From contig DATEBX010000013.1 of the NCBI GenBank assembly GCA_035287145.1, positions 1-32,174 on the forward strand: a stretch of DNA of 32,174 nucleotides, in the 5' to 3' direction. The notes beneath the pieces were generated by a model. It worked only from the letters and a program-made list of their open reading frames with translations. It had not been told where the DNA came from and searched no databases. The stretch comes from Patescibacteria group bacterium. GTDB taxonomy: Bacteria > Patescibacteriota > UBA1384. A program made the translations under genes and the position numbers. Shown here piece after piece: positions 3,221 through 25,658 of this stretch (positions are counted from its first letter, which is position 1; each line of letters opens with the position of its first letter).

Positions 3221-3285
3221 GGGAACCAGGGGACGGCAGGGAACCAGGGGACGGTTCTCTTTTACCCTGTACTTTCGGCTTTTTT
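3221..3285 (+). repeat. R-family repeat, copy R1 (tandem 18-nt units + 38-nt core)
   Basis: gggaaccaggggacggca (3221-3238), then gggaaccaggggacgg (3239-3254), running into the core ggggacggttctcttttaccctgtactttcggcttttt (3247-3284). The core is identical to 4299-4336 and contains the last codons and stop of the RAYT gene. Confidence 0.9.
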
Positions 3286-3915
3286 AAGTAAATTACGATT
3301 GATTTTTTGTTGCTCATTGTATCTTTGTCCCTTGCTACCCCAAGTATTCTTATGGAAAGTATCTTCTATCATCTGGCTCACTATCAGTTTTCGGTATTGC
3401 ACCTGGCGTTCTTTCGGAGTTTTGCCCAACGCATCGTATAAAAAATCCGGCGTAACTAATTTATTATCCTTACCTTTTGCATAAAAGCGATAGCTTGAAT
3501 ATTTATAATCTTCGGGTTTTTCAACTATACCGCGTCTTGTTGGATTGAGTTCAATATATTTACCGCATTGAGTGAAATAGGCATCTTTGCCGACCGGCTG
3601 GCTTTTGTACCGGTCTTGCCAGAAATGTCCCACCCAGTTATATAGCTGTCTATAATGATGGAAATACGCCAAATTAAGTCTTTTCATAAATAAAGAGAAA
3701 TCATTGGCTTTTCTGGTTTGAACCAGTAAATGAGTATGATTTGGCATTAAGCAGTAATGATAAAGGTCAAAGGGGTGCTCCTGCTTGTATTTTGTAACTA
3801 ATTCAAGAAAGTAATAATAGTCTTCGTTGGCTCTAAATACAACATTACGATTGTTACCCCTGGTCATGATGTGGTAAAAGCTGCGAGATAATAATAAGCG
3901 TGGGGGTCTTGGCAT
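3262..3915 (-). CDS. REP-associated tyrosine transposase (RAYT) / IS200-like Y1 HUH transposase
   Basis: N-terminus MPRPPR...SFYHIMTRGNNRNVVF, HUH motif LMPNHTHLLV, C-terminal Tyr region PEDYKYSSYRFY. 217 aa. Flanked by inverted R repeats. Confidence 0.85.
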   Translation of the reverse strand: MPRPPRLLLSRSFYHIMTRGNNRNVVFRANEDYYYFLELVTKYKQEHPFDLYHYCLMPNHTHLLVQTRKANDFSLFMKRLNLAYFHHYRQLYNWVGHFWQDRYKSQPVGKDAYFTQCGKYIELNPTRRGIVEKPEDYKYSSYRFYAKGKDNKLVTPDFLYDALGKTPKERQVQYRKLIVSQMIEDTFHKNTWGSKGQRYNEQQKINRNLLKKAESTG

Positions 3916-3940: not shown

Positions 3941-4004
3941 AAAAAGCCGAATTATCAGGTAAAAAGAGAACCGTCCCCTCTGCCGCTCCGTCCCCTCTGC
4001 CGCT
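3941..4004 (-). repeat. R-family repeat, copy R2 (inverted relative to R1)
   Basis: The reverse complement of 3941-3978 is ggggacggttctctttttacctgataattcggcttttt. It adjoins a perfect 17-nt x2 tandem, ccgtcccctctgccgct, at 3971-3987 and 3988-4004. Confidence 0.9.
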
Positions 4005-4266: not shown

Positions 4267-4336
4267 GGGACCGGAAGGGGGACAGGAGGGACCGGAAGGG
4301 GGACGGTTCTCTTTTACCCTGTACTTTCGGCTTTTT
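4267..4336 (+). repeat. R-family repeat, copy R3 (tandem 21-nt units + 38-nt core)
   Basis: gggaccggaagggggacagga (4267-4287), then gggaccggaagggggacgg (4288-4306). The core at 4299-4336 is identical to 3247-3284. Confidence 0.9.
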
Positions 4337-6354: not shown

Positions 6355-6441
6355 GCCCAGGTGGCGGAATCGGTATACGCGTATGCTTGAGGTGCATATG
6401 GCCGCAAGGCTGTGCGGGTTCAAGTCCCGCCCTGGGCACCA
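6355..6441 (+). tRNA. tRNA-Leu (anticodon GAG), CCA encoded
   Basis: Acceptor gcccagg/cctgggc, anticodon stem tatgc/gcata with loop ttGAGgt, long variable arm, T-arm gcggg-ttcaagt-cccgc, then ACCA. Confidence 0.9.
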
Positions 6442-6565
6442 AACTTCGCCTCCTTACGTCGGCTTCGCTTGGCAAGCCAATTGAATAAAAGCGAAGTTTG
6501 TCCCGCGCTGTGCCGCCCCGAAGCTTTAAGCGAAGGGCGGAAGCCCCATCGGGGCGAAGTGGGAC
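6441..6565 (+). other. Two adjacent multi-helix structures directly after tRNA-Leu(GAG)
   Basis: aaacttcgc (6441-6449) pairs with gcgaagttt (6491-6499), with an inner ggctt/aagcc helix. gtccc (6500-6504) pairs with gggac (6561-6565), enclosing ccgccc/gggcgg and gcccc-atc-ggggc. The last hairpin resembles the centre of the C-family repeats. Confidence 0.5.
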
Positions 6566-6629
6566 ATCTGCAAGAATATAACTTCGCGTGGCACGCTAAA
6601 TTGGAAGAAATAATTTATAAATCGATATA

Positions 6630-9422: not shown

Positions 9423-9498
9423 GCACCCGTAGCTCAACGGTTAGAGCACTTGGTTTACATCCAAGGGGTTGTCTGTTCGAATCAGACCGGGTGCACCA
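9423..9498 (+). tRNA. tRNA-Val (anticodon TAC), CCA encoded
   Basis: Acceptor gcacccg/cgggtgc, D-arm gctc-aacggtta-gagc, anticodon stem cttgg/ccaag with loop ttTACat, T-arm gtctg-ttcgaat-cagac, then ACCA. Confidence 0.9.
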
Positions 9499-9592
9499 AG
9501 TAAAATTACTTCCTGCAAAACGAATTACATTCTGTTATTGCAGGAGCGTAACCACTTGGCGCAGCCATATAAGGAAGTAATTTTACGCAGTC
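9499..9592 (+). repeat. tRNA-3'-linked structured repeat T1 (candidate small RNA)
   Basis: Starts immediately after the CCA of tRNA-Val. Nested helices: gtaaaattacttcc (9500-9513) with ggaagtaattttac (9573-9586), cctgcaa with ttgcagg, and aacgaat-tac-attc(t)gtt. Direct repeat of 9863-9959. Confidence 0.75.
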
Positions 9593-9670
9593 GCGTGGCG
9601 AACGAAGTGAGTTTTACGCGACATTTCGTAACTTTGAGATTTGATTTTTGCATTTTGATTTATATGTATG

Positions 9671-9774
9671 TCTGAGTAGCTCAGTGGTATCCTCCTTCGT
9701 AAAATCTCTTGCAGTATTCAAATTATTGAAATCTGCAAATAGATTTTACTTCGGACGGACAGGGAGCAGAGGAC
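9671..9774 (+). pseudogene. tRNA-Phe 5'-half pseudo-copy interrupted by a 74-nt nested hairpin
   Basis: 9674-9689 (gagtagctcagtggta) and 9764-9774 (gagcagaggac) are identical to consecutive segments of tRNA-Phe (9792-9818). They are separated by a 74-nt insert (9690-9763). There is no anticodon loop, T-arm or 3' acceptor. Confidence 0.6.
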
Positions 9775-9787
9775 ACCAAAAGGATTT

Positions 9788-9862
9788 GCTGGAGTAGCTC
9801 AGTGGTAGAGCAGAGGACTGAAAATCCTCGTGTCGTGAGTTCGATTCTCACCTCCAGCACCA
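9788..9862 (+). tRNA. tRNA-Phe (anticodon GAA), CCA encoded
   Basis: Acceptor gctggag/ctccagc, D-arm gctc-agtggta-gagc, anticodon stem gagga/tcctc with loop ctGAAaa, T-arm gtgag-ttcgatt-ctcac, then ACCA. Confidence 0.9.
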
Positions 9863-9959
9863 AGTAAAATTACTTCCTGCAAAACGAACTACGTTCTGTT
9901 ATTGCAGGAGCGTAACCACTTGGCACAGCCACATAATAAGGAAGTAATTTTACGCAGTC
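9863..9959 (+). repeat. tRNA-3'-linked structured repeat T2 (candidate small RNA)
   Basis: Starts immediately after the CCA of tRNA-Phe. Same nested helices as T1. The innermost helix closes with C9889-G9893 where T1 has T9525-A9529. Confidence 0.75.
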
Positions 9960-10059
9960 CCGAGACGACGCTTCTTAAATAACAGGATGTAATCCGTTTT
10001 TAAGAAAGGAGTTTTTCGGGACAACACTTGAATCACACTCCCCATCCAACAATATCCCA

Positions 10060-13259: not shown

Positions 13260-13273
13260 TAAATCAACCCAAT

Positions 13274-13300
13274 CGCACCCCGTAGGTGTGTTTATGGTTT
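13274..13300 (+). repeat. H-family hairpin H5 (cgcacc-ccgta-ggtgtg + tttatggttt), probable tRNA terminator
   Basis: 6-bp stem including one G-U pair. Shares the CGTAGGTG motif and the T-rich ...GGTTT tail with H1 and H4. Confidence 0.55.
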
Positions 13301-13333: not shown

Positions 13334-13376
13334 CTTAACCTGTTAAAGTACACCTCGTAGGTGTCCTTTTTGGTTT
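13334..13376 (+). repeat. H-family repeat H1 (cttaacctgttaaagtacacctcgtaggtgtcctttttggtt)
   Basis: 13345-13375 is identical to 23002-23032, and 13334-13357 is identical to 14501-14524. Hairpin ACACCT-cgt-AGGTGT followed by CCTTTTT. Confidence 0.9.
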
Positions 13377-14500: not shown

Positions 14501-14570
14501 CTTAACCTGTTAAAGTACACCTCGCCCGCCTGCGGAAGCTTAATTTTAAGCAGTACGGGCAAGTAGGTGG
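14501..14570 (+). repeat. H-family repeat H2, hairpin loop interrupted by a 39-nt insert
   Basis: 14501-14524 equals the H1 5' half up to ...gtacacctcg. 14525-14563 is a 39-nt self-complementary insert (gcccg/cgggc, gcttaa/ttaagc). The repeat resumes at taggtgg (14564-14570). Confidence 0.75.
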
Positions 14571-22984: not shown

Positions 22985-23001
22985 AGTAGAATGAACCCGC
23001 A

Positions 23002-23032
23002 AAAGTACACCTCGTAGGTGTCCTTTTTGGTT
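23002..23032 (+). repeat. H-family repeat H4
   Basis: aaagtacacctcgtaggtgtcctttttggtt is identical to 13345-13375. Confidence 0.9.
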
Positions 23033-25552: not shown

Positions 25553-25620
25553 ACAAAATATCAAAATTGTCTTTATAAAAAATACTCGCCAGAACCTTTA
25601 TAAAAAGGGCTCATGACAAA

Positions 25621-25658
25621 GGGGACGGTTCTCTTTTACCCTTAACATTCGGCTTTTT
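25621..25658 (+). repeat. R-family repeat, solo copy R4
   Basis: ggggacggttctcttttacccttaacattcggcttttt. The first 22 nt are identical to R1 and R3. No tandem units. Confidence 0.85.

Follow-up and report, generated by a model that had tools for sequence, protein, structure and literature searches.

The DNA analysed here (the window; 32,174 nucleotides of contig DATEBX010000013.1, assembly GCA_035287145.1, from a Patescibacteria group bacterium) contains genes for tRNA-Val(UAC) and tRNA-Phe(GAA), and each of these is followed, directly after its encoded CCA, by a copy of a structured repeat about 95 nt long. This repeat, of which a diverged third copy lies on the opposite strand, is the subject of the present analysis. 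The tRNA genes of the window were placed with ARAGORN and Rfam. The two tRNA genes and the three copies comprise the following features.

9423-9498, plus strand: tRNA-Val(UAC) gene; the encoded CCA (9496-9498) also provides the first three nucleotides of the basal helix (P1) of copy 1
9496-9567, plus strand: family hairpin core of copy 1 (covariance model, 69.6 bits)
9496-9501 with 9554-9559, plus strand: P1 of copy 1, CCAAGT with ACTTGG
9506-9509 with 9548-9551, plus strand: P1b of copy 1, TTAC with GTAA
Within copy 1, plus strand: P2, TTCCTGCA with TGCAGGAG, with a conserved U.G pair at its base
Within copy 1, plus strand: P3, GAAT-TAC-ATTC
Within copy 1, plus strand: tail CGCAGCCA, with a second, "decoy" CCA at 9565-9567
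9572-9586, plus strand: anti-5′ arm of copy 1, AGGAAGTAATTTTAC, pairing perfectly with 9500-9514 (the outer helix)
9788-9862, plus strand: tRNA-Phe(GAA) gene; the encoded CCA (9860-9862) is common to P1 of copy 2
9860-9931, plus strand: family hairpin core of copy 2, with P1 formed by 9860-9865 and 9918-9923 (68.1 bits)
Within copy 2, plus strand: inner pair C9889-G9893 and tail CACAGCCA
9939-9953, plus strand: anti-5′ arm of copy 2, pairing with 9864-9878
9957-10022, minus strand: copy 3, a diverged canonical member, tail-to-tail with copy 2 (69.7 bits)

The segments downstream of tRNA-Val (9499-9592) and tRNA-Phe (9863-9959) gave a near-perfect alignment, confirming that they are the same element, as had been proposed in an earlier reading made from the sequence alone (the sequence-only reading). 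Two of the differences between the copies, T9525/C9889 and A9529/G9893, concern positions that pair with each other. The others are a G/A difference within the segment GGCGCAGCC versus GGCACAGCC, and a T/C change and a 3-nt indel in an A/T-rich linker. The helices described earlier were recovered as well: the 7-bp helix CCTGCAA/TTGCAGG was found where it had been placed, the pair T9525-A9529 is indeed exchanged for C9889-G9893 in the inner hairpin (4 bp, loop TAC), and the outer helix is present in both copies, although its length is 15 bp and not the 14 bp reported. Folding z-scores were -3.8 (copy 1) and -5.2 (copy 2), and none of 200 shuffled sequences folded equally well. In copy 1, P1 is distinct from the outer helix, with which it has two bases in common, and the outer helix (9500-9514 with 9572-9586) excludes P1b and part of P2.

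Copy 3 emerged from a repeat search, in which positions 9968-10015 were 75-79% complementary to the 5′ half of copies 1 and 2. Its helices are P1 (GTCCCGA/TCGGGAC), P2 (TTCTTAA/TTAAGAA) and P3 (GGAT-TAC-ATCC). Compared with copies 1 and 2 it has changed on both sides of all three helices, with pairing preserved in each.

A family of hairpin repeats in Patescibacteria

The distribution of the element was examined by scanning one genome per species with a 22-nt core pattern (AAACGRRYTACRYYCTGTTATT), for which about 4 chance matches were expected by calculation. This search identified 47 genome loci, nearly all of them in metagenome-assembled genomes (MAGs) of Patescibacteria, Berkelbacteria or Saccharibacteria, with up to 9 copies per MAG. 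The single match in Bacteroidetes was located inside a coding sequence and is a chance match. A covariance-model search, proposed in the sequence-only reading as the way to find further copies, was then run with a model built on 50 copies. In the genome loci, examined as 8-kb stretches (individual loci are given below as L numbers), it recognised 56 true copies, six of which diverge from the search pattern, and in metagenome loci it gave 27 matches, of which about 22 are distinct tRNA-linked copies. Viral contigs gave no matches, and hence no sign of a phage origin.

No Rfam 15 family matched any copy, either in the window (at the gathering threshold and at E <= 10) or in 16 of the loci (at the gathering threshold); the only matches in these scans were to tRNA, rRNA and RNase P. 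The failure of the sequence-only reading to match the element to a non-coding RNA family is thus borne out. The hammerhead, twister, pistol and hatchet ribozymes were considered and rejected, as the element showed no resemblance to their consensus cores in an informal comparison, the formal test being that against Rfam. No earlier description of the family was found in the literature on the candidate phyla radiation (CPR) or in Rfam 15. The window repeat is real. It represents one lineage within a new hairpin-repeat family that is dispersed among CPR bacteria.

Each unit of the family is about 65 nt long (65-82 nt, or about 90 nt with an extra arm) and forms a hairpin with the shape of a rod, as every copy does when folded. 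Its basal helix P1 is variable yet always paired (5′ CCCC.../...GGGG). The internal loop (AUUCC / AGCGUCAU) is conserved, as is a U.G pair at the base of P2, found in 52 of the 57 rows of the model alignment (56 of which are true family members). The apical P3 stem-loop, with its UAC loop, is strongly conserved.

In the model alignment 87.5% of the cells were paired, compared with about 42% when the partners were slid. Two-sided changes occurred in 221 cells, and the observed values were not attained by any of 500 shuffles. The inner pair of P3 that differs between copies 1 and 2 is formed by U-A in 38 rows and by C-G in 16 others, and at the two variable P3 pairs the non-pairing combinations, although allowed by the search pattern, were almost never found. 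P2 and P3 were independently supported by RNAalifold applied to a MAFFT alignment. Of the earlier claim that selection acts on RNA or single-stranded DNA structure, one part stands, since the structure is constrained and covariation across the family is strong; selection on RNA, however, is not shown by covariation alone. Indeed, G.U and A.C mismatches were equally frequent in P2 and P3 (8 versus 8; 21 versus 50 overall), and since these counts reveal no RNA-strand bias, the covariation does not single out the RNA strand. Paired changes of this kind could also come from quasi-palindrome correction at the DNA level. Neither a single compensatory pair nor strong covariation on its own is proof of RNA function. 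Stop triplets in the 56 copies number 72 in the sense and 215 in the antisense direction, an asymmetry that was not counted as independent evidence because it is mostly due to the shared conserved core.

Subfamilies are distinguished by their 3′ tails. One tail (CUUCCUGAG...) runs into a second hairpin overlapping a Shine-Dalgarno sequence, another (UCUGCG and a hairpin) is flanked on both sides by TTGAC...TTGAC, and a third type ends in CAGGC. In the TTGAC-flanked subfamily (L014, L016, L033, L043) the downstream TTGAC, itself a good -35 box, is located 17-18 nt before a good -10 box; judging from this arrangement, the insertion appears to sit at the -35 box of a promoter and to regenerate it.

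Analysis of the genomic context showed that 55 of the 56 copies are intergenic; the remaining one is in frame within a ComEC-like open reading frame (ORF; L024), preceded by 128 codons and followed by 376. The neighbouring genes have nothing in common with one another and include those for a pilin, LexA, glutamate dehydrogenase (GDH), YebC, FtsA, UvrB, GroES, S6, RnpA, DnaG, a sigma factor, LepA and PNPase; rRNA spacers and promoters are further sites. A riboswitch or gene-specific regulator, suggested by copies that are followed by a hairpin, GGAGG and ATG, was rejected on the ground that the downstream genes are functionally unrelated. Both orientations occur, with about 20 copies sense and about 8 antisense to both neighbours. 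Tail-to-tail inverted pairs like that of copies 2 and 3 recur in L049, L062, L065, L070 and L071, where, as in the window, the larger layout is tRNA, sense element, arm and antisense element.

Two pairings in the tRNA-linked lineage

Metagenomes were scanned with the pattern CCANNNAAAATTNNTTNCTNNAAAACG and the matches were checked with the covariance model. The roughly 22 further distinct copies detected in this way follow tRNAs for Val, Phe, Thr, Gln, Arg, Pro, Ile, Ala, Leu, Gly and Met. All tRNA-linked copies start exactly at the CCA, and every genome in which the lineage was seen encodes the CCA of all its tRNA genes. Genomes that do not encode it (L004, L025, L029, L044 and others) carry other subfamilies, located elsewhere. 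The element is not a tRNA-specific RNA: the rest of its family, which is far larger, sits elsewhere.

Pairing statistics for this lineage were obtained from a plain MAFFT alignment of 22 copies. P1 (CCANNN/NNNTGG), in which the tRNA CCA forms the first three pairs, is paired in 22/22 copies, and two of its positions covary. The family fold as a whole is 97% paired; for the outer helix, which covaries too, the figure is 86.9%. In the 5′ strand, columns 13, 14 and 17 show covariation with each of their two partners (A:T:T versus G:C:C, C:G:G versus T:A:A, and C:G:G versus T:A:A, respectively), which implies either a two-state fold or a pseudoknot. Coexistence of P1 and the outer helix as a pseudoknot would be conceivable, since only two bases are common to both. 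The outer helix described in the sequence-only reading is thus conserved, but it is only one of two conserved and competing pairings of the 5′ strand. Its arm varies in sequence by sublineage (e.g. AGGAAAAATTGCTTT/AAAGCAATTTTTCCT and ATAAAAATTCCTTTCTAA/TTAGAAAGGAGTTTTTAT) and beat all shuffles (0/200) in 12 of 30 candidates selected by regular expression, several of these candidates being chance matches. P1 is followed by a conserved GGC(R)(C)AGCCA, and the UGGC...GCCA ends can form a small hairpin once P1 opens.

The element is presumably co-transcribed as the 3′ trailer of the tRNA. The transcript would then adopt either of two states: state A, in which the family hairpin forms and the tRNA CCA is paired, or state B, with the outer helix formed, the CCA left free and the UGG paired to the decoy CCA. 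A design of this kind would probably still permit maturation of the tRNA 3′ end.

A primer-binding-site-like reading of TGGCGCAGCC, as the complement of the acceptor strand of the adjoining tRNA, was rejected, as it is partly true for tRNA-Val only. In the rRNA operon spacer of L047 (3430-3802, minus strand) an element follows both tRNA-Ile and tRNA-Ala; in the second of these copies the apical hairpin is different and larger, and the outer helix measures 18 bp.

Probable mobility and rival explanations

Comparison of related loci revealed sites that hold the element in one genome and lack it in another. In L029 a family element lies 60 nt downstream of a RAYT homologue, as an exact 82-nt insert in the spacer between the RAYT and sigma genes (CCCGCC...GGCGGGCAGGC; also written CCCGCC...GGGCAGGC). 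The same spacer is empty in L103, whose orthologous transposase is 81% identical to that of L029. No target duplication was found in this pair, the flanks being AAAC(G/A)A on one side and AATC on the other. The CCA...CCA and TTGAC...TTGAC repeats around some subfamilies are ambiguous as target duplications; flank duplications were read by eye, a BLAST search with joined flanks being too insensitive.

The pattern at tRNA genes is similarly patchy. Within the syntenic cluster tRNA-Thr(UGU)-Tyr-Thr(GGU)-rpmG-Trp the element is present only after Thr(UGU) in L005 and only after Thr(GGU) in L050. Genes with identical 3′ ends for tRNA-Pro(CGG), Arg(CCU), Met, Gly(UCC) and Val are filled or empty depending on the genome, and Leu(CAG) is filled in L080 and empty in the window. 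Near-identical copies occur at unrelated loci of one MAG (L006/L033; L022/L034). Contigs of the same strain from several samples break inside the intergenic region that holds the window repeat, as expected for a repeat, and one variant contig (98%) differs only upstream of tRNA-Val. Among the roles offered by the sequence-only reading, the one that best fits this patchy and reciprocal presence is that of a small mobile element with tRNA 3′ ends as its target, with the correction that the family is not tRNA-specific.

We consider the window repeat, with a probability of roughly 0.6, to be one copy of a hairpin element that is, or recently was, mobile and that is dispersed in Patescibacteria (CPR), comparable to REP/REPIN, Rickettsia palindromic (RPE) and Correia elements. 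Insertion without target duplication would favour a single-strand (HUH/Y1-type) or a recombinational route over a DDE transposase; the single-strand HUH mechanism fits because of the missing duplication and the hairpin logic. The candidate enzyme of the window and its repeats are as follows.

3262-3915, minus strand: ORF of 217 aa for a RAYT-like Y1 (IS200-type) transposase, with a Pfam Y1_Tnp match
3246-3284 and 3941-3979: 38-nt inverted repeats (GGGGACGGTTCTCTTTTACC...) bracketing the RAYT gene, distinct from the tRNA-linked element
4299-4336 and 25617-25658: solo copies of this 38-nt repeat

The RAYT-like ORF scored 76 bits against the NCBIfam model REP_Tyr_transpos (cut-off 80), and RAYT homologues are very common in Patescibacteria (3604 at E <= 1e-10).

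Several observations weigh against mobility. No transposase is linked to the element, and the RAYT gene of the window is flanked by a different repeat; none of five RAYT contexts that were fetched is flanked by the element, and other orthologues carry unrelated palindromes. An empty-site allele was sought in the same-strain contigs, and all of them were identical. The conserved part of the element is its apex and internal loop and not its termini, the reverse of a classical transposon with terminal inverted repeats (TIRs). Several further features, namely the near-invariant U.G pair, the 20 to 8 bias towards the sense orientation, the three-way covariation and the CCA/decoy-CCA design, would also fit an RNA useful to the host.

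Judged from its sequence, the element may possibly have a role in RNA processing or ribozyme activity. According to the first alternative to mobility, it is a host-beneficial cis-acting RNA module, i.e. a punctuation, processing or stability signal recognised by an RNase (e.g. RNase III acting on the rod of about 25 bp), with a two-state trailer that masks and then releases the CCA, and it spread by usefulness rather than selfishness. Such a module would explain why the 5′-strand columns covary with both alternative partners, why the CCA is always within P1 while a second CCA can take the UGG, and why the U.G pair and internal loop are conserved over very divergent lineages. The sense bias and short operon spacers, the copies after tRNA-Ile and tRNA-Ala in an rRNA operon (L047), and the subclass whose following hairpin pairs with the Shine-Dalgarno sequence point in the same direction. 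However, about 8 copies are antisense to both neighbours, G.U and A.C mismatches are balanced, one copy lies within an ORF and others in gene fragments, and presence at orthologous tRNAs is patchy, so that the element is dispensable. We regard this explanation as possible but unlikely.

A narrower proposal concerns the tRNA-linked composite, which would be a functional two-state or pseudoknotted 3′-trailer RNA that pairs the tRNA CCA and then passes the UGG to the decoy CCA. It would constitute a novel cis-acting device, or a novel class of small ribozymes, serving tRNA 3′-end maturation in CPR bacteria, spread via a mechanism that recognises tRNA 3′ ends. Candidates for such a mechanism would be CCA/TGG guide pairing by a Y1 enzyme on single-stranded DNA, or template switching onto mature tRNA at the RNA level. 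We think this proposal doubtful.

A self-cleaving ribozyme that frees the tRNA 3′ end, similar to theta ribozymes and with P1 and the outer helix coexisting as a pseudoknot, is highly improbable. The strand order P1-P2-P3-P1′-(small hairpin)-P2′ would be that of ribozymes of the hepatitis delta virus (HDV) type, P1 and the outer helix are both conserved with only 2 nt in common, and the site directly after a tRNA is that of theta ribozymes (PMC10879173). Nevertheless, no HDV-like or other ribozyme model scored in the window (E <= 10) or in 16 loci (gathering threshold). The geometry also argues against it: P3 is 11 bp with a 3-nt loop, 13 nt lie between P3′ and P1′, neither L3/P1.1 nor a catalytic C in J4/2 is assignable, and position +1 would be C and not G. 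Moreover, the outer arm is wholly lacking in most family members, and the encoded CCA would be lost by cleavage 5′ of P1.

Least likely of all is a transcription terminator or attenuator of tRNA genes: a stable hairpin does directly follow each tRNA gene, the plus-strand hairpin of the inverted copy 3 is followed by GAGTTTTTC, and the two alternative helices recall terminator/antiterminator logic, but a terminator scan found no site at 9499-9960, the stems in the window are A/U-rich with no U-run after the outer helix, and family members also lie upstream of start codons, within an ORF and in antisense orientation.

Known elements, gene fragments and minor features

The element fails several defining features of the REP/REPIN, RPE and Correia families alike. 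Like REP/REPIN-RAYT systems (PMC3116915, PMC3337134) it comprises short, multi-copy, mostly extragenic imperfect palindromes with compensatory changes, by which REPINs also preserve their hairpin (PMC3116915). Inverted doublets, insertion without target duplication and the presence of RAYT-type genes in the same genomes are further similarities. It differs in having no conserved 5′ tetranucleotide of the GTAG type (its 5′ ends are CCCC, CCCA or CCA), in forming a single hairpin of about 65 nt conserved at the apex and not at the foot, in not flanking the RAYT genes examined, and in possessing a tRNA-CCA-specific lineage and one copy within an ORF.

RPEs, reportedly described by Ogata and co-workers in 2000, are said to be selfish palindromic repeats of a reduced genome. 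They resemble the present element in their in-frame presence in a protein gene and in sites next to or inside RNA genes; unlike them, the element is intragenic in only 1/56 cases, shorter, unrelated in sequence and found in another phylum. Correia elements (CREE/NEMIS) of Neisseria have conserved TIRs and a TA duplication, are co-transcribed, and have long stems that RNase III is able to cut. They share with the element the form of intergenic hairpins similar to miniature inverted-repeat transposable elements (MITEs), which can carry promoter or Shine-Dalgarno-like sequences, whereas its termini vary and no duplication was present in the one clean filled/empty pair. With regard to DDE-type MITEs, the 15-bp outer helix of the tRNA-linked lineage is TIR-like, but it covaries and is missing from other subfamilies, and the L029/L103 pair shows no target-site duplication.

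Theta ribozymes are HDV-like, lie downstream of phage tRNAs and have a proposed role in 3′-trailer processing; the tRNAs beside them mostly lack an encoded CCA (encoded in 4.5%), and they are known from phages of Bacteroidota and Bacillota and not from CPR chromosomes (PMC10879173). The element is likewise a structured unit of about 70 nt directly 3′ of tRNAs, with the same strand order if P1 and the outer helix coexist, but the HDV-like core is unmatched, and the CCA is here always encoded and part of a helix. IS200/IS605 elements are said to recognise their target by guide-target base pairing (work attributed to Barabas in 2008 and Guynet in 2009). Similarly, the flanking triplet CCA pairs with an internal TGG at the foot of the hairpin, target duplication is absent and a single-strand hairpin logic applies; this is an analogy only, as no TnpA is linked to the element and a 3-nt target cannot by itself account for tRNA ends being the only sites used. 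The closest parallel, a palindrome specific to one lineage and following many, though not all, tRNA genes, comes from Methanopyrus kandleri, in which it lies about 10 bp downstream of roughly half of the tRNA genes and has been proposed as a 3′-maturation signal (PMC5217627). That motif, however, is short, archaeal, not fused to the CCA and not part of a family dispersed throughout the genome.

To our knowledge, the non-coding and repetitive DNA of the CPR/Patescibacteria, which make up a large share of bacterial diversity, is almost undescribed. The family provides a marker, in both sequence and structure, by which contig breaks beside tRNA genes are explained and which also points to recent change in these reduced genomes. 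Its tRNA-linked lineage has an unusual target, the exact CCA end of many tRNA genes, which it builds into its own stem, and it keeps two pairings by three-way covariation, a pattern usual in riboswitch-like switches and not in selfish repeats. Two questions become testable with this lineage: how a mobile element spares an essential gene from harm, and how tRNA 3′ ends mature with a minimal set of RNases.

Several copies are embedded in a short, duplicated piece of the adjoining gene's end. A duplicate of the first 15 codons of lepA carries a 69-nt element in frame (L037, 3691-3830, minus strand; L013, 3215-3400, plus strand), with a stop 7 nt before the real start and synonymous differences only, an arrangement conserved in two different MAGs. 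L009 (6425-6940, minus strand) contains three tRNA-Lys 5′ ends, one split by the element and the third belonging to the intact tRNA-Lys; the remaining 5′ half is followed by an 82-aa ORF that is GIY-YIG-like by eye and has no NCBIfam match. For tRNA-Pro (L004) it is a 3′ fragment that carries the element, and the 5′ fragment of tRNA-Phe in the window (9672-9774) is a further case. As ideas only, such duplications might derive from a small circle via a single crossover, or from a cassette bringing a replacement gene end.

Related features of the window, all on the plus strand, are as follows.

9590-9622: short hairpin GTCGCGT...ACGCGAC after copy 1, with the same tail in L073 and L080
9672-9774 (9672-9689 and 9764-9774): 5′ pseudo-fragment of tRNA-Phe, ending 13 nt upstream of the intact tRNA-Phe
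9690-9763: variant hairpin element, which splits this pseudo-fragment in the D-loop
6439-6500: trailer of tRNA-Leu(GAG), laid out like the element, with CCA, 5′ strand, CTTGGCAAGCCA, linker and complementary arm GCGAAGTT; its interior differs

In position and basal sequence the hairpin at 9590-9622 looks like the deleted remnant of an inverted partner copy (compare copy 2). The variant element differs in its apical hairpin, and its basal sequence (TCCTCCTTCG...CTTCGGACGGACAGG) is of class B. The tRNA-Leu(GAG) trailer has a folding z-score of -1.95 and is followed by a hairpin GUCCCGC...GUGGGAC (region 6439-6580). Similar trailers, beginning CCA(N)ACTTCGC, are present in L063 and L073, and the trailer is a weak candidate, by its sequence, for a sister lineage or a degenerate form of the element.

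Two other repeats were also observed. In L029 a perfect 21-bp palindrome (AGGGAAGATCCAATCTCCCCC...GGGGGAGATTGGATCTTCCCT; 1820-1866) is located in frame within the RAYT-like ORF, a second instance of a palindrome inserted into coding sequence. A terminator-like hairpin repeat (AAAGTACACCTCGTAGGTGTCCTTTTTGGTT) occurs in the window at 13337-13375 and 22994-23032 (92% identical), with partial copies at 13262-13300 and 14504-14542; one copy of this repeat lies downstream of tRNA-Leu(UAA).

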